Below, one piece after another: positions 6,862 through 14,962 of a stretch of 36,254 bases of DNA. This DNA is from a virus (taxonomy: Duplodnaviria > Heunggongvirae > Uroviricota > Caudoviricetes), in IMG/VR virus record IMGVR_UViG_2531839432_000012; one strand, given 5' to 3'. The translations under genes were made by a program, and so were the position numbers. The notes below the pieces were generated by a model that ran no database searches, was not told the DNA's origin, and saw only the letters and a list, made by a program, of their open reading frames with translations. The first letter of the stretch is position 1. The number at the start of each line of letters is the position of its first letter.

Positions 6862-7251
6862 ATGATTGACGCTCATGACTTCACAAGATGGGTGCGCACA
6901 CAGGACACCCGTCTGGCTCCCGTTCTTCAGGGATTATTTGATCTCTACATCCGTGGTCGTGACAACAGAGCACGCACCACAAAACCGGAGAATGCAGACC
7001 CCCTTTATTTCACAGTAGACGACTGCTACCGCGTGGACTTCACACCACACGGGCTGGCGTTGCACTGCCTGACACCACACGGAGAATCACTGCTGGCGTA
7101 TTACGACTCCCCGGCCTCCGTATTTGCGGCAATGCTGGCGCATCGCACTGCTGGCGGGTGTGCCTCGCTGAGTGAATACACCGCTGAATTTAACCGCCTT
7201 TCTGCCCTCTTCTCGCAGGAGTGGCAGCGCGTGACGGGATACCAGCCATGA
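6862..7251 (+). CDS. Hypothetical early protein (129 aa) immediately upstream of the replication gene
   Basis: ORF; its stop overlaps the A start (ATGA). Confidence 0.5.
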   Translation: MIDAHDFTRWVRTQDTRLAPVLQGLFDLYIRGRDNRARTTKPENADPLYFTVDDCYRVDFTPHGLALHCLTPHGESLLAYYDSPASVFAAMLAHRTAGGCASLSEYTAEFNRLSALFSQEWQRVTGYQP

Positions 7252-10088
7252 GTGAGTTTGCATGGAGCTGGAATGAACCACGGCCAGCCATTGATCCGGC
7301 CAGATTTACGGAGCACAGGCAGGAAACTGAAACCGACCTGCAACGCGCCATCCGTTACTACCTTGAGGCAGACAAAAAGGCTCTGGAAGAACAGGAAGCG
7401 AAGGAGGAAGCCTTTTTCGCACAATCCACCGTGGGTAAAAAACTCATGGCATCCCTTGAGGAAGCCGGACAGCGTGAAAAGCTGGCACAAAGCATCATCA
7501 GCAAGCGTCAGGCAACAGAACAAGACCCGGTGGCCCGTGCTTTTGCCACACTGAAGGTGCTTCCCGTTTATCTGCGTGAACCTCTGAGCCGCCACCTCTC
7601 TTTCCTGCGCAAAAAACAGGAAGCCGATCGCCAGAAAGGCAAAAAGAGCTGGCAGGCTGAACGCTACGCGCGCGGAACCCTGCGCAAAATATTCCAACGT
7701 CTGGACCGCACCGATCACCGCTGGCTGACACCGGGTTATCGCTCCCTTGCCGGACGCGAACGCCTGGACGATTTGCTTTACCTACCGCAGCTCAACAAAC
7801 ACCAGATACAGACGCTGGCCACCATGACGGCGGCGATGTTCAGCAGCACCTTCGAAAAACTCTGCGATGGCTTTGGCGCGACTGATGGCGAACTGACCAT
7901 GGATGTAACGCTGAAGGCGTATCAGATGCTGGCCCGCATGGCGTTACACCTGCACGCCATGCCTCCACATTATGACGCACTGACAACAGACAAAAACCGG
8001 AGGAACGAACCGGACACGGAGCTGCTGCCGGGCGCAATCCTTCGCCTGACCTGTGCGGAATGGTGGAAACGCAAACTGTGGCTGTTACGTTGCGAGTGGA
8101 GAGAAGAACAACTCCGCGCCGCCTGTCTGGTTTCCAGAAAAACATCACCCTATCTGAGCCAGGACGCGTTAAGCGAGTTTCGCGCACAGCGCGACAAAAC
8201 ACGCGATTTCCTGAAAAGTTTCATGCTGGAAAATGAAGACGGGTTTACGATTGATCTCGAGACGGTGTATTACGCGGGAGTAAGTAACCCGGTTCACCGT
8301 AAGGCAGAAATGATGGCCACAATGAAGGGGCTGGAACTTCTGGCCGAAGCCCGTGGCGACAAAGCGGTGTTTCTGACTGTCACCTGCCCGTCAAAATACC
8401 ACGCCACAACAGAGAACGGTCATCCGAATCCCAAATGGAACGGGGCCACCATGCGCGACTCCAGCGATTACCTGGTTAACACGTTTTTTGCAGCGGTCCG
8501 CAAGAAACTGAACCGCGATGGCCTGCGCTGGTATGGCATCCGCACGGTGGAGCCTCACCATGACGGCACCGTGCACTGGCATATGATGGTCTTTGCTCAT
8601 CCGGAAGAAATCGACAGCATTGTGGCCATCACCCGCGATATTGCCATTCAGGAAGACCGCCACGAGCTGGGCGATGACATAACTCCGCGTTTTAAGGCGG
8701 AGTACGTAGACGGCTCAAAAGGCACACCAACCAGCTATATCGCGACCTACATCGGAAAAAACCTGGACAGCCGCGCCGTGGATGGCATCGACCCGAAAAC
8801 GGGCAAGCCACGCGTTGAGCACGAAACCGGAAAATCAATGGCAGAGAGCGTGGAACGCGCCATCGGCTGGGGGCGCCTTCACCGGGTCCGCCAGTTCCAG
8901 TTCTTTGGTATCCCCTCCCGTCAGGTGTGGCGTGAACTGCGTCGCCTTGCCAGCCAGATGGCACGCAACCCGGAAGGCCCGCAACGGCTGAAGGATGACG
9001 CAATGGACTCGGTTCTTGCTGCCGCTGATGCCGGATGTTTTGCCACCTACATAGAGAAACAGGGCGGCGTACTTGTTCCACGCAAAGACTACCTGATTCG
9101 CACCGCCTACGACCTCGCAGATGAGCTGAACGATTACGGCGAACAGAGCGTACAGATTTACGGGATCTGGTCACCACTCATCGGGGAATCCTCCCGTGTG
9201 TGCACGCACCCGGATAACTGGAAGCTGGTAAGACGTAAACCTGAAGCAGAAGACATCGCCCGCGAAAATGGTTTTGACCTTCAGGGCGGCCCTGCCGCCC
9301 CTTGGACTCGTGGCAATAACTGTCCCCGTGTACAGGAAACGGACAACAACGGGACAGAACAGCCGGAAGAACGGCCAGCACCGTGGCCGCAGCTCCCTGA
9401 CGGCGTTGAAGTGAACGTATGGATGCGCTCACTGAAACGGCACGAACGCCGGGCGCTGATGCGTTCGCTTCGTGACAAACAGGCAAAAAACAGCAGTGAT
9501 GAAATGCAGAGCTGGACACAGAGCCGCAAACAGCAGCGGCCTTTGCCTGATAACCACGAATTACTCGCTAAAGAATGGCGGGAATCTGCCGAATCTCTCG
9601 GCCTGCATATCGGTGAACAGCAGATGCAGCACCTGTTACGGGGCGGCAGCCTGTACGTTGACGGCAGCATCATTGCACCGCAGGGATTTGAAATTGTACG
9701 CAAACCGGATACCCGCCCGGACAGCCGAATCACGCAGTTCTGGCAGCGCCTGAGCCGTAATCACGGCGTAAGCAGCACGGAGATCCGCCATAACCCGGTC
9801 GCCAGCTATCTGGAACAGCTGGGGGCATCAGCCCCCGAAGCCGCCGCACGCCTGGCATCCACACTTCAGCAGGACCAGAACACCATGAAAACCCCCGTTA
9901 CCGTGCTTTCTGACATGCTGCGCGCCATCCGTGACGCAGAGCACGCACAGAGAATCAGTGAAACCACTGAACGCGCCCACCGCAAAGCAGACCTGCTGCG
10001 GGGTGGCTTGACCCGTGGGAACAAAAAACAGACAGAAACGGGATCCACGAATCCCGTAAATGACCAAAAAACGCGCAGCGATATATGA
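7248..10088 (+). CDS. A: Replication initiation protein (P2 gpA-like rolling-circle replication endonuclease), 946 aa; start taken at MSEFAWSW
   Basis: Very large early ORF at the position of P2 A after the early small genes; conserved-looking core (HxH-type segment VHWHMMVF, YIATYIGKN); identification by size, position and motifs, not a search. Confidence 0.75.
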   Translation: MSEFAWSWNEPRPAIDPARFTEHRQETETDLQRAIRYYLEADKKALEEQEAKEEAFFAQSTVGKKLMASLEEAGQREKLAQSIISKRQATEQDPVARAFATLKVLPVYLREPLSRHLSFLRKKQEADRQKGKKSWQAERYARGTLRKIFQRLDRTDHRWLTPGYRSLAGRERLDDLLYLPQLNKHQIQTLATMTAAMFSSTFEKLCDGFGATDGELTMDVTLKAYQMLARMALHLHAMPPHYDALTTDKNRRNEPDTELLPGAILRLTCAEWWKRKLWLLRCEWREEQLRAACLVSRKTSPYLSQDALSEFRAQRDKTRDFLKSFMLENEDGFTIDLETVYYAGVSNPVHRKAEMMATMKGLELLAEARGDKAVFLTVTCPSKYHATTENGHPNPKWNGATMRDSSDYLVNTFFAAVRKKLNRDGLRWYGIRTVEPHHDGTVHWHMMVFAHPEEIDSIVAITRDIAIQEDRHELGDDITPRFKAEYVDGSKGTPTSYIATYIGKNLDSRAVDGIDPKTGKPRVEHETGKSMAESVERAIGWGRLHRVRQFQFFGIPSRQVWRELRRLASQMARNPEGPQRLKDDAMDSVLAAADAGCFATYIEKQGGVLVPRKDYLIRTAYDLADELNDYGEQSVQIYGIWSPLIGESSRVCTHPDNWKLVRRKPEAEDIARENGFDLQGGPAAPWTRGNNCPRVQETDNNGTEQPEERPAPWPQLPDGVEVNVWMRSLKRHERRALMRSLRDKQAKNSSDEMQSWTQSRKQQRPLPDNHELLAKEWRESAESLGLHIGEQQMQHLLRGGSLYVDGSIIAPQGFEIVRKPDTRPDSRITQFWQRLSRNHGVSSTEIRHNPVASYLEQLGASAPEAAARLASTLQQDQNTMKTPVTVLSDMLRAIRDAEHAQRISETTERAHRKADLLRGGLTRGNKKQTETGSTNPVNDQKTRSDI

Positions 10089-10164: not shown

Positions 10165-11124
10165 ATGAAAATTTGTATCGACGACGGCTCCACCAACATC
10201 AAGCTGGCATGGACTGAGAACGGCGAACGCCGCAACGCCATCAGCCCGAACAGCTTCAAGTCGGAATGGTCTGCGCCGTTCGGTGGCACGCAGCCCGCGA
10301 ACTATATGCTTGATGGCGTGCGCTATGGTTTTGATCCGGTCAGCGATCGCTTTGTCCAGACGACCGACACGCAATACCAATACAGAGATGTGAATGTCAT
10401 TGCCATTCATCACGCGCTGGTCAAATCAGGCATCACGCCACAGGAGGTGGATGTGGTTGTCACCCTGCCACTGAGCGAGTATTTCGACACAAACGCACAG
10501 CCGGACATGGCCAACATCAACCGCAAAAAAGCGAACGTTATGCGCCCGGTGGAGTACCAGAACGGCGAAGCATTCACTATCCGTAACGTGCGGGTTATGC
10601 CTGAATCCATTCCGGCTGGCTTTAAGGCACTGGCTGACATGAGTCCGTTTGAATCCCTGCTGATTGTGGATTTGGGCGGAACCACGCTGGATGTGGCAAA
10701 GGTTCAGGGGCAACTGGCAGGTATCAGCCAGGTGTTTTGCGATCCACACGTAGGCGTTTCTCTGATGGCCGATGCCGTACTGTCGGTGATGGCCACTAAC
10801 GGTATGCGCACCAGTCACCACATCGCCAATACCATTATCGAACATCGCCATGATGAAGCCTGGCTGCGCCAGCACATCCACAATGACGCGCATTACGCCA
10901 GCCTGATGGCGGTTATTCGTGAAAAGGAAGAAACACTGAAACAACGCGTGATCCGCGCGCTGGCGGGTTTTTCGGGTTACGGTCGGGTGATGGTTGTCGG
11001 TGGCGGGGCGGAGATTGTGGCACCCGCTATCCGCGAAGCCTGCGGAGTTAATGCGACTTTCATCGCGGACGGGGTGCCACAGTTTGCTCTGGTTAATGGG
11101 CTGTACGCAATGGACAAGGAGTAA
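10165..11124 (+). CDS. parM: Actin-like segregation ATPase, ParM/StbA family
   Basis: Translation matches remembered plasmid R1 ParM over its length, including IDDGSTNIKL, VMPESIPAG, DLGGTTLD, GGGAE; good RBS. Confidence 0.85.
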   Translation: MKICIDDGSTNIKLAWTENGERRNAISPNSFKSEWSAPFGGTQPANYMLDGVRYGFDPVSDRFVQTTDTQYQYRDVNVIAIHHALVKSGITPQEVDVVVTLPLSEYFDTNAQPDMANINRKKANVMRPVEYQNGEAFTIRNVRVMPESIPAGFKALADMSPFESLLIVDLGGTTLDVAKVQGQLAGISQVFCDPHVGVSLMADAVLSVMATNGMRTSHHIANTIIEHRHDEAWLRQHIHNDAHYASLMAVIREKEETLKQRVIRALAGFSGYGRVMVVGGGAEIVAPAIREACGVNATFIADGVPQFALVNGLYAMDKE

Positions 11125-11128
11125 ACCA

Positions 11129-11440
11129 ATGACGACACCAACCAGACGGATAAGTTTCTATCTGAAGCCCGCCGCCGTCAAGAACGAAGGCGAAGCATGC
11201 GCCTGGCTGGACAGCCTTACACCAGAAGCCCGCAAAAGCGGCCAACGCGTGGCTTTTCTGGCCGGGCTGGCACTTCTGAAAATGAATCCGGCAGAGGCTT
11301 ACCGACTGGCTGCATGGGCTGATGATGAGGCGTTATCAGTGACACAAACCAGGACAGAACGCCCCGCGTCACAGCCAGTATCAACCGCACAGATAACCAG
11401 TCAGATGGCCGGAAATATCCGGGCGTTATTTCCCGAATAA
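11129..11440 (+). CDS. parR: ParR/StbB-like centromere-binding adaptor (start at ATG 11129, not 10994)
   Basis: N-terminal ISFYLKPAAV...LDSLTPEARKSGQRVAFLAGLAL resembles the remembered ParR ribbon-helix-helix N-terminus; RBS AAGGAG 7 nt upstream; immediately downstream of parM. Confidence 0.65.
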   Translation: MTTPTRRISFYLKPAAVKNEGEACAWLDSLTPEARKSGQRVAFLAGLALLKMNPAEAYRLAAWADDEALSVTQTRTERPASQPVSTAQITSQMAGNIRALFPE

Positions 11441-11503: not shown

Positions 11504-11836
11504 ATGCAACACATTGACAGAGAAAAAGCGCAGCGACTGATTGAGCGGATGGAAGCGCTGGCGAAAGAAGAAAATGTCAACATCCAAAAAATAGCTGAAT
11601 GTGGCCAGATAGTTCTTCGTCGTGAAAAAGACCTCAAACAACTGATGTCTGGCGAAACCAGCAAAACATGGACTTCAGGCGAGGAGACGGTTTATTGCAG
11701 TTTCTGCAATAAATCCCAGCACGAAGTCACAAAGGTGATTGCCGGACCGTCTGTTTACATCTGCAATGAGTGCGTGGATTTGTGCAATGAAATTATCAGG
11801 AAAGAAGTGACAGACAAAAAGGAAAAAAACGCATGA
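11504..11836 (+). CDS. ClpX-type C4 zinc-finger domain protein (110 aa), first gene of a five-gene coupled operon
   Basis: C-terminal half [37 protein letters not shown] closely resembles the N-terminal zinc-binding domain of ClpX; RBS GGGGGA upstream. Confidence 0.7.
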
Positions 11837-12554: not shown

Positions 12555-12811
12555 CCACTTTAACCGACAAAGAACTGATTAAAGAAATCAAAGAGCGCAT
12601 AGGTAGCCTGGACGTTCGAGACAATATTGAACGCCGTGCTTATGAAATTGCACTGGCATCGCTGGAAGCAGAGCCAGTAGCATGGATGCATGTAAATAAC
12701 GGCATCGGAATACCAGCAATAACAAGGAGTAAAGATGTTGCAGAGAGTTGGTTATCAAAAGGCTGGTATGTCCAACCCTTACATCTAGCCCAGCCTGCAT
12801 CAAAGCTATAG
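12551..12811 (+). CDS. Hypothetical protein (86 aa), last gene of the operon
   Basis: Start overlaps the previous stop (ATGA); followed by a terminator. Confidence 0.5.
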   Translation: MTTLTDKELIKEIKERIGSLDVRDNIERRAYEIALASLEAEPVAWMHVNNGIGIPAITRSKDVAESWLSKGWYVQPLHLAQPASKL

Positions 12812-12820
12812 AAATGAGCC

Positions 12821-12850
12821 AAACGCCCTCTTCCAGGGCGTTTATTTCAA
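12821..12850 (+). terminator. Rho-independent terminator (AAACGCCCT-cttcc-AGGGCGTTT + TATTTCA)
   Basis: Seen in sequence directly after the stop at 12811. Confidence 0.55.
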
Positions 12851-13248
12851 TGCACAATAGCGCACAAATTTGCACAATTTTTTTGAACGACTTTTTGCCC
12901 TTCCGGCCCGCGTGGCGGCTGGATCCGTCAAGGATCCGTGCGTGCACAAAAAAACGCGCTTTTTCTACGCGCAGGTGACGGGGGAACAGCCCGCGTTTCA
13001 GGGGGTAAATAGCACTCCCTGAACGATGTCGCAGCGACACAACAGAATGGCTGTATCGCTCACGCTGAGCGTGAAAAAGACGTAAGGGGTTCTGATTTGA
13101 TGGGATGAAAGGTAAGGCCGTCAAAATCGCACTGAGGCGGCGAGAAAATGCAGTCAGCGCGGTGGGATTGTGTAAGAGTCTGGCCGTCGATGATAGCGAT
13201 AAGTCGGAAGACGTCGTGAAATTATCTGATTGATACGGGAGCTGGAGA

Positions 13249-13277
13249 GCCGGGGCATAAATTTTTTATGCCCCGGC
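13249..13277. other. Perfect 29-bp palindrome GCCGGGGCATAAATTTTTTATGCCCCGGC (hairpin or protein-binding site) inside a 565-bp non-coding region
   Basis: Seen in sequence. Confidence 0.4.
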
Positions 13278-13376
13278 GAAGCAGCAGACAAGCGAAGCGC
13301 GTCAGTGATGCAGCACCTTGCCGACCACACTTCATAAGTGCAAAATACGAGCAAAGAAATCAATGGAGGCTGTTTT

Positions 13377-13901
13377 ATGGTCATTAATTACAAGCAGTTA
13401 CGAGAAAAACGAGAGCAGGTAAAGGAAAGTTTTCGCCGCAATGAAGATCTGACCCCGCTTGTACACCTTGCCCAGGGAATTGTTGATGCTTATGAAATCT
13501 CTCTGGAGCTGCCATCACAGACATGGACGGATAGCGATGGTAATCGCCAGCATTACGTTTCATGCGGACTGGAAACAACTGAAGGGGTTCGCAGAATGCC
13601 TTTATCTCAGATTCCTGCCGCTACCCCCAAAGCAAGGGGCGGCAATGATGAGCGAAAACTGATTTTCAGCATTGAGACAGTGGTTGACGACACACCTGGC
13701 GAAGTCGCGTTCGTGCATACTCCTCTTTCGATCGCAATGTATAACGATGAAATACAGGTTCGCGTTAATAATAATATCGTGCCACTTAAAGAAGGTAATT
13801 CACCATACACCACCGTTTGTGAAGCCATCCAATATTACGTTCTCTCTGAAATTGATAATCTCAAGCCTGACGGCACCCAGAAAATGGTTCAACTCTGGTA
13901 A
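13377..13901 (+). CDS. Hypothetical protein (174 aa; start at ATG 13377 with RBS GGAGG)
   Basis: ORF convergent with the portal gene; no recognisable motif. Confidence 0.55.
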   Translation: MVINYKQLREKREQVKESFRRNEDLTPLVHLAQGIVDAYEISLELPSQTWTDSDGNRQHYVSCGLETTEGVRRMPLSQIPAATPKARGGNDERKLIFSIETVVDDTPGEVAFVHTPLSIAMYNDEIQVRVNNNIVPLKEGNSPYTTVCEAIQYYVLSEIDNLKPDGTQKMVQLW

Positions 13902-13907
13902 AAAGGA

Positions 13908-13932
13908 CAGCCCCATCACGGGGCTGTTTTTT
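13908..13932. terminator. Bidirectional terminator-like hairpin (CAGCCCCATCACGGGGCTG + TTTTTT) between the convergent 13377..13901 gene and portal gene Q
   Basis: Seen in sequence; overlaps the last codons of Q. Confidence 0.5.
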
Positions 13933-14962
13933 CATCAAGAAGAGCATAAGAATTAAAACGGATCACCTCTTCACCAAGCCAGTCATTGATGTGCTTCATG
14001 GCCTCCATGACAGGCATCAGCTCGTTAATTGCGTAAACCCGCGCTGCCTTCTCCACATCACCAAACGCACTTTTTTCGCCCGGCATCGCCCCCATCAGTT
14101 GCGGCGGAACGCGGTGCGAAGCCAGCACATCATCACGGGATGCCGCCTTAACATTCATGAACTCATCCTTTGCGGTGATCTGCTGGAACGGCAAAATTTG
14201 CACCCCCTCTTTGCCCCCGTTGGGCGCATGAATGAGCACGTTTTTAAACGCACCACCACCACGTGCCCCCTGTAGCGTTTCCTTCAGGGAGTCCATGCTT
14301 TCGCGGTTTACCTGCGCTGCACCGATGTAGATGATGCACCCGGCGTGGGATCCGTTGTCGTAGTACAGCTTTCTGAACATGTCCGCCGAATGAGACAGGC
14401 TGGCCGAGAGTAATGCGCCAAGATATTCCGGCATGCCGTAGATTTCCTGGTTAATATCCGGATTCATCAGGTGGCACACTTTGCCAGGGCGAAACTGAAA
14501 CGCGTCCTTGCCATCCTGTACATACCACCATGATTCAAGATCGCTTCCGCGTCGCATGTATTTCGCCAGGGCGTGCCGTAATTTAAGCGGTTCGCCGAGC
14601 ATATTGCTTCGAAGCTCAAGGAATGCGTTACCGAATACAAACCAGTCCAGCGCCAGCGCCGAGAAATCCTGCCGGGAAAGCAGCGGGGGCGGAATATAGC
14701 AACCGAGCAATACATTGCGCTTAAAGTAAAGCGCAGACTGATGCCAGGACGTTTGCCGGGCGGCTCTTGCCAGACCGTACCAGTCCACCGGGGTTTCATA
14801 CCACCGCCCGTTATCAGCACAGTACATATTGTCCAGCAAATCATGCCCGGTCAGGCGATAAGGACCATCAAATGTGAATGCACTGAGCGATGATTCTTTC
14901 CTGAGCGCATCAGCGAGATCAATGCGTGAACTCATGCGCACTTTTTTATTTTTTCTGCTCAT
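13916..14962 (-). CDS. Q: Portal protein (P2 gpQ-like)
   Basis: 348-aa ORF directly downstream of and overlapping the large terminase gene, divergent from the O-N-M-L operon as in P2; size matches gpQ. Confidence 0.8.
   Translation of the reverse strand: MSRKNKKVRMSSRIDLADALRKESSLSAFTFDGPYRLTGHDLLDNMYCADNGRWYETPVDWYGLARAARQTSWHQSALYFKRNVLLGCYIPPPLLSRQDFSALALDWFVFGNAFLELRSNMLGEPLKLRHALAKYMRRGSDLESWWYVQDGKDAFQFRPGKVCHLMNPDINQEIYGMPEYLGALLSASLSHSADMFRKLYYDNGSHAGCIIYIGAAQVNRESMDSLKETLQGARGGGAFKNVLIHAPNGGKEGVQILPFQQITAKDEFMNVKAASRDDVLASHRVPPQLMGAMPGEKSAFGDVEKAARVYAINELMPVMEAMKHINDWLGEEVIRFNSYALLDEKTAP

Follow-up and report, generated by a model that had tools for sequence, protein, structure and literature searches.

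Genomic context and coding potential of the 174-aa gene

In the window (the whole stretch of DNA analysed here, 36,254 nucleotides), a rightward gene for a 174-aa protein sits between a cos-like region and the convergently transcribed portal gene Q, within the GpA-GpQ interval next to cos that is the main defence hotspot of P2 phages (PMC9122126, PMC13586616). From left to right, the features at this locus are as follows.

13132-13150, unstranded: cos-like core, a putative cohesive-end site upstream of the gene, placed by homology
13249-13281, unstranded: perfect hairpin with 13-bp arms and no U-tract, between cos and the insertion, found by folding
13311-13933, plus strand: inserted block (very probably a moron), missing from P88-type phages, ~623 bp in place of ~10 bp of P88
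13318-13346, plus strand: putative sigma-70 promoter, TTGCCG-17 nt-CAAAAT, proposed from conservation
13365-13369, plus strand: ribosome-binding site GGAGG, 7 nt 5' of the ATG, read from the sequence
13377-13901, plus strand: coding sequence of the 174-aa protein (WP_001692802.1), soluble, 19.8 kDa, pI 5.0
13902-13932, both strands: putative bidirectional intrinsic terminator common to the gene and Q, with a stem at 13907-13927 and A5 and T6 flanks, from a consensus scan and folding
13916-14962, minus strand: portal gene Q, the convergent flank, whose final five codons and stop come from the insertion

The open reading frame runs for 174 codons on the plus strand, from ATG 13377 to the TAA at 13899-13901, and the GGAG of its ribosome-binding site is kept in all five aligned lineages. 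A GTG start at 13338, which gives the 187-aa product of the mechanical ORF list, was dropped, as the orthologues and the wider family all begin M-V/T-I-N/T-Y. Between E. coli alleles, dN/dS is 0.08-0.14 at dS 0.06-0.55, and the gene is thus under purifying selection; the earlier note, which had described a rightward gene of this length with a strong ribosome-binding site, was right on both counts. The exact window protein is deposited as WP_001692802.1, and every source annotates the protein as hypothetical, with no function assigned. Although this lack of any annotated function would suit a non-functional stretch, whether a chance ORF or a decaying remnant, such a reading is hardly credible: beyond the selection on its codons and the conserved ribosome-binding site, the gene is intact in 395 of the 397 genomes that carry it, has orthologues in other genera at 46-62% identity, belongs to a family of 86 clusters with conserved motifs, and has a confidently predicted fold. 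Both versions of it are effectively refuted by the selection and conservation data.

Structurally, neither a transmembrane segment nor a signal-like hydrophobic stretch was found in the protein by sequence analysis, and no enzymatic or membrane signature was seen. Two agreeing AlphaFold2 models (pLDDT 78.7 and 79.9; pTM 0.72 and 0.69) place helices at residues 5-22 and 26-42, a beta-sheet at ~49-135, and a further helix at 145-159, predicting an alpha/beta protein whose beta-sheet core is flanked by a helical hairpin at the N-terminus and a single helix at the C-terminus. Profile and structure searches, which the earlier note had proposed, only partly bear out its description of the gene as an orphan with no recognisable motif. 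On the one hand, the Pfam, NCBIfam, and PADLOC profile libraries gave zero matches for the 174-aa protein and only single chance-level matches across 30 family members (two for PADLOC, E 0.009 and 0.019). On the other hand, the protein matches PHROG 5091, a family of unknown function, with E 1.4e-65 and 221 bits (residues 1-168 against the entire 164-position profile), and thus has a family. PHROG 5091, the sole family match, is the protein's own family, matched over its full length and holding no functional information.

Foldseek searches of the two models against the PDB (twice) and BFVD found no fold match, with best E-values of 0.22 and 0.6 for the PDB and 0.053 for BFVD, and TM-scores of ~0.35 or less. 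NTF2-like folds (CaMKII hub, PhzA/B, ketosteroid isomerase) recurred among the Foldseek results at noise level, and no such relationship is claimed. A match to a designed helical-repeat PDB entry (5cwb, E 2.9e-10, obtained with a close-homologue profile) was a composition artefact that disappeared with a 61-sequence profile (best E 0.2). Similarly, two candidate fusion proteins, P0031 (3,099 aa) and P0083, turned out to be cadherin and Ig-repeat proteins in which the beta-hairpin motif alone matches, and there were no informative domain fusions among the family matches.

Position relative to cos and extent of the insertion

The sequence GAGGCGGCGAGAAAAT at ~13132-13150 aligns with the P2/186 cos G(A/T)GGCGGGGAAAGCA in a four-way alignment, and the P2 cos junction scores 49 against window positions 13113-13260, as compared to 30 +/- 5 (maximum 45) in 100 shuffles; the P2 cos 19-mer itself is absent from the window, either exactly or with up to three mismatches. 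The distance from the cos core to the Q stop is ~168 bp in the gene-less phage P88, 186 bp in P2, 195 bp in 186, and ~784 bp in the window. From homology and geometry we infer that the cos core lies at ~13132-13150; together, the alignment and the matching P88 geometry would put the gene between cos and Q, at the far left of the packaged DNA. In P2, where cosL occupies positions 1-19 and Q positions 187-1221, the two are separated by just the terminator tQ (160-181), and phage 186 likewise has no gene between cos and Q, in agreement with what the earlier note had said of P2.

Several smaller elements surround the cos-like core. The perfect hairpin at 13249-13281 folds at -24.2 kcal/mol on both strands (z ~-5.6), is shared by all P88-type phages, identical with and without the gene, and may be either the native terminator of the Q operon or a packaging-related element. 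A 42-aa ORF at 13105-13233 (plus strand), hypothetical in several phage records, overlaps the cos-like core and is probably an annotation artefact, not a gene. Further upstream, a terminator-like hairpin at 12820-12844 stands directly 3' of the last rightward hotspot ORF (which ends at 12811) and probably stops the early/hotspot transcript before cos, in which case the 174-aa gene would be insulated from read-through.

Alignment to P88 and P884B11 places the left border of the insert at a GATG microhomology (13306-13310), with P88 homology back at 13934. Sixteen phage records contain the cos-proximal non-coding DNA at 12812-13376 (90-95% identity), and four of them carry the gene; in the other 12, corresponding to the seven phages P88, 520873, 500465-2, 503458, Shae_phiSM, Chuche, and P884B11, the match ends at ~13310 and the portal gene follows. 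Compositionally, the gene (45.7% GC) and the insert as a whole (45.3%) differ from the window (52.5%), the portal gene (52.9%), and the terminase gene (53.9%), and third codon positions have 43.7% GC in the gene versus 59.6% in the portal gene.

The insertion also reaches into the portal gene. Q ends in ...LLDEKTAP* in the window and in three further gene-bearing E. coli loci that were checked (L001, L021, and L019), and in ...LLDTQPTS* in the empty-site phages P88 and P884B11, so that the insertion swaps the last five portal codons (EKTAP* versus TQPTS*; window 13916-13933, minus strand, and locus L005, 3492-3509) and the two alleles encode slightly different portal C-termini. The stop codons of the 174-aa gene and the convergent Q are 14 bp apart. 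The hairpin between them, at 13907-13927, covers the last four Q codons and the Q stop (13916-13918) and folds at -19.9 kcal/mol on the plus and -17.3 kcal/mol on the minus strand (z -5.3 and -5.0); at the sequence level, therefore, the bidirectional terminator shared with Q that had been proposed earlier stands. At the other end of the insert, the elements of the putative promoter, TTGCCG and CAAAAT, and their exact 17-nt spacing are kept in two E. coli and two Salmonella lineages in which the spacer and surroundings have diverged. This promoter-like element agrees with the consensus at 8 of 12 positions, which is under the promoter-scan threshold and explains why it went unlisted, and it is not evident in the Trabulsiella locus.

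Morons have been defined as extra DNA between neighbouring genes, with deviant GC, with a promoter and terminator of their own, and with expression in the repressed prophage (PMC3594210). Because the extra DNA, the deviant GC, and the predicted terminator fit this published definition, to which the promoter-like element may add a promoter, we call the insertion a moron. It was probably acquired horizontally, and is very probably an autonomous accessory element rather than a core gene of the phage.

Occurrence in E. coli genomes and phage collections

We surveyed 5,426 complete E. coli genomes, and found the gene at 403 places in 397 of them (~7%), full-length in all but two of these 397 and chromosomal in every copy. 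The conserved flank at 12900-13300 was located 1,307 times, in 1,142 genomes, and an intact, empty P88-type junction in 712 genomes; occupancy of the site is ~31-35%, and ~64% of the P88-type loci in these complete genomes are without the gene. With 397 carriers against 712 empty sites, the cos-Q site is essentially biallelic, holding either this gene or nothing, unlike the whole GpA-GpQ interval, for which 1,650 arrangements have been described (PMC9122126). In phage collections the gene is scarce, with matches in just 4 of 50,697 phage records at E <= 1e-5. One phage that has it, PhiR44_2, propagates on E. coli C.

These data bear directly on the suggestion of the earlier note that the gene may be additional cargo of an accessory hotspot, for which it had proposed scoring presence and absence across related prophages. 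The cargo part of this suggestion is well supported, by absence from at least seven P88-type phages that have both flanks, by the ~64% of empty loci, and by the foreign GC, as well as by the gene's predicted terminator and conserved promoter-like element, by the Trabulsiella homologue at another place in the hotspot, and by more distant homologues in accessory slots of phages of unrelated types. The hotspot part needs qualifying: the gene does lie between a GpA-type ORF (7221-10088) and Q (13916-14962) and is variably present, but its cos-Q slot is biallelic and not hyper-variable like the GpA-cos part, and the protein shows no similarity to a defence protein, with no PADLOC match. Universal presence in P2-like phages with a structural role, which the note had named as the outcome that would speak against cargo, was not seen, as P2, 186, P88, and other phages are without the gene.

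Carriers include O25b:H4-ST131, O111, O145, and O103 strains, and the gene is common in the first three of these groups. Upstream of cos, the window and ST131 both have ParM and a partition protein, joined in the window by a ClpX-zinc-finger protein and small ORFs and in ST131 by a pair of leftward genes, of which one is DUF4760; the set in O111 is shorter. Given that this upstream cargo varies among carriers, the gene is not tied to a particular partner.

Two of the upstream genes deserve a description of their own. Right after GpA, at 10165-11440 (plus strand), come genes for a 319-aa actin-like protein of the ParM/StbA type and for a small partner in partition, both of which are also found in P88 and in ST131 prophages; about one quarter of P2-like phages have a ParM-type partition system and may persist as plasmids (Rousset et al. 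2022, PMC9122126). In the GpA-cos part of the hotspot, at 11504-11836 (plus strand), lies a gene for a 110-aa protein that is essentially a ClpX-type C4 zinc finger (CSFCNK...ICNECV); its P88 orthologue is annotated 'ClpX' and its Salmonella orthologue has the PF06689 zf-C4_ClpX domain. Such a stand-alone ClpX N-domain could serve as a decoy or adaptor for host ClpXP.

Diversity and genomic contexts of the family

A word-indexed search of 5.8 billion proteins found relatives in Escherichia, Salmonella, and Trabulsiella only, and a profile run exhaustively against 1.84 billion cluster representatives returned 86 clusters at E <= 1e-3, mostly of 155-175 aa and aligned end-to-end. Conserved motifs of the family are the N-terminal M-x-I-T-Y, followed by Y-x-x-S-L-x-L-P-x-x-x-W, F-x-I-x-T-V-x-D-D-S-P-x-G-G, and V-C-x-x-I-K. 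The named sources of the wider family are all Enterobacterales (Xenorhabdus, Yersinia, Entomohabitans, Edwardsiella, and Klebsiella), and in all contexts examined the family is confined to phages and prophages. Besides E. coli, proteins ~99% identical to the 174-aa protein have been deposited under Yersinia enterocolitica, which suggests either a very recent cross-genus spread of the P2-type prophage analysed here or mislabelled assemblies.

The contexts of these relatives fall into several types. The Salmonella orthologues (~60% identity) occupy the same place, convergent with a P2-type portal gene, and in one Salmonella-type locus the gene comes after a YafO toxin gene. The Trabulsiella orthologue (46%) lies directly after GpA in the GpA-GpQ hotspot and is followed by HicB and Phd/Fic genes. 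In at least seven of 17 wider-family loci, the gene comes directly after the antiterminator gene Q and before the holin and endolysin genes; in two others (L014 and L034), it stands between the lysis genes and the terminase gene. Five loci of E217-like myophages (L007, L015, L023, L028, and L029) share the order sheath, tube, chaperone, gene, tape measure at ~45-50% identity, and single loci have the gene after a PixA inclusion-body gene and after an antirepressor gene. Thus, the family occupies accessory slots in lambdoid, P2-like, and E217-like temperate phages of Enterobacterales. In 15 family loci, the gene is surrounded by phage genes for regulation, lysis, and tails, and PADLOC, run on these neighbours and on the window hotspot, reported no defence model save one methyltransferase.

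The fixed position in the five E217-like loci, kept despite identities of only ~45-50%, invites the view that the protein is an accessory of morphogenesis or packaging, such as a helper in tail assembly or a factor that works at cos or at the portal, and so does its adjacency to cos and the portal gene in P2-type phages and to the terminase gene in L014 and L034. We consider this very improbable. Functional phages such as P88, as well as ~64% of near-identical P88-type prophages, do without the gene, as do P2 and 186 at this position; its GC is foreign and it is transcribed against the late operon; and the chaperone-tape measure slot is already documented as the site of a moron, HK97 gp15. Moreover, the gene accompanies three different modules in different phages, which leaves it with no co-varying structural partner. 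That no structural module co-varies with the gene, and that most close relatives of the window phage are missing it, together argue strongly that it is not structural.

Comparison with known morons and hotspot genes

Among characterised loci, the closest in layout is the cytotoxin locus of the Pseudomonas phage phiCTX, a member of the P2 family, in which cosL (1-21) is followed by -35/-10 elements (281-308), ctx (362-1222), terminators, and a convergent Q homologue, the same slot and architecture as in the window. Like the 174-aa gene, ctx shows a presence/absence polymorphism, being missing from >90% of phiCTX-like prophages (PMC7454045). The products differ, as ctx encodes a secreted pore-forming toxin, whereas the 174-aa protein is unrelated in sequence and predicted to be cytoplasmic.

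The phiCTX parallel raises the alternative of host-directed lysogenic conversion, in which the protein would alter host physiology or virulence and not phage sensitivity. Consistent with this, other cargo of the P2 hotspot is non-defensive, including cytolethal distending toxin and partition systems (Rousset et al., PMC9122126), and the gene is common in ST131, O111, and O145 strains. Position points the same way: in at least six family loci, the gene lies between Q and the lysis genes. Stx toxin genes occupy that slot in Stx phages. Nevertheless, conversion is distinctly unlikely here, given that the protein has no signal peptide or membrane segment and is thus not a secreted toxin or surface protein, that the profile libraries revealed no similarity to known effectors, and that the family is found equally in phages of insect-associated Xenorhabdus and of Edwardsiella, Klebsiella, and Yersinia, which share no pathogenic niche.

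A second instructive case is gene 15 of HK97, the original moron, which has deviant GC and its own promoter and terminator and functions in superinfection exclusion (PMC3594210). It, too, is a small gene between otherwise adjacent genes, and the five homologues of the 174-aa gene in E217-like myophages occupy the same chaperone-tape measure slot. HK97 gp15, though, is an inner-membrane protein of the YebO family; the 174-aa protein lacks membrane segments and is not related to gp15 in sequence.

Finally, the hotspot cargo of P2 itself (old, tin, and the systems of Rousset et al. 2022) resembles the 174-aa gene in lying within GpA-GpQ next to cos and in being variably present. The differences are that old and tin are on the opposite side of cos and transcribed leftward, and that the 174-aa gene matches no defence model and resides in a biallelic sub-site. 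Of eight newly tested hotspot systems, three proved defensive (PMC9122126), and machine-learning predictors flag 15-32% of P2 unknowns as antiviral (PMC13586616).

Proposed function

Our best guess, which we put forward tentatively and with the probability still tilted against it, is that the gene, expressed in the prophage state, encodes a cytoplasmic binding protein which keeps competing phages out. As we envisage it, the moron, lodged between cos and Q in a P88-type prophage (P2 family, Xuanwuvirus), would be transcribed in the lysogen from its own putative promoter, independently of the convergent late operon; its product would act alone, as a cytoplasmic binder of a protein or small ligand, and the benefit, by analogy to the P2 hotspot genes tin and old, would be the exclusion of competing phages. 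This guess draws on the gene's place in the hotspot, on its moron-like make-up, on the toxin-antitoxin genes that lie near some homologues, and on published success rates for hotspot unknowns, and the family's presence in slots of known exclusion or conversion morons, such as that of HK97 gp15, was also counted in its favour. Since no effector domain and no fold match were found, the mechanism itself is drawn from context. Points against a defensive role are that PADLOC was negative for the protein and 30 family members, that the promoter-like element agrees with the consensus at only 8 of 12 positions, and that the cos-Q slot is biallelic and does not hold rotating cargos.

In the lambdoid relatives, the gene is the first after the antiterminator gene Q, which implies late lytic expression, and a role in serving the phage therefore fits at least as well as one in protecting the host. 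The protein could instead act in counter-defence, as a small soluble inhibitor or sponge that shields phage infection or induction from a host immune system. Many anti-defence proteins are small, acidic, soluble, and non-enzymatic, and the 174-aa protein is small, acidic (pI 5.0), and soluble, with no enzymatic motif. Its family is found in phages and prophages only, is absent from PADLOC, and occurs in the Q-dependent late region of lambdoid relatives and between lysis and terminase genes in L014 and L034, a slot that in the Yersinia locus L009 holds an anti-CBASS gene with an Acb2/Tad1 hairpin. The conserved aromatic residues Y5, Y39, W50, Y60, and F97, together with the TVxDDSPxGG loop, could form a ligand pocket.

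Nonetheless, we regard counter-defence, although the leading alternative to exclusion, as rather unlikely. The 30 family members gave no match to a Pfam anti-defence family, and no fold match emerged among solved or viral predicted structures. The promoter-like element, terminator, and convergent orientation are the classic signature of a conversion gene expressed from the prophage, though they are compatible with early expression after infection, and a frequency above ~31-35% might be expected of a gene that counters a common defence. We give nearly an even chance to a broader reading, namely that the protein is the founder of a new single-gene family in phage-bacterium conflict that either excludes phages or neutralises host defence, through a predicted fold for which neither solved nor predicted viral structures offer a detectable relative.

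Implications for P2-family phages and their hosts

The gene is an uncharacterised and unnamed hotspot gene that is already in a published catalogue: Table S5, among the accessible portions of Rousset et al. 2022 (PMC9122126), lists the ST131 allele (WP_000236495) as hypothetical, at least 167 times. A literature search by PHROG 5091 and by protein identifiers found no paper on the gene and no report of its testing, and the accessible portions of Rousset et al. 2022 do not single it out. From a genomic perspective, in P2-family phages of E. coli the short stretch from cos to Q serves as a cargo slot, laid out like the phiCTX toxin locus and with a single alternative occupant. If that occupant serves in defence or counter-defence, it would represent a single-gene system of only 525 bp whose fold has not been seen before, carried by major clinical E. 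coli lineages and mobile between three unrelated types of temperate phage.
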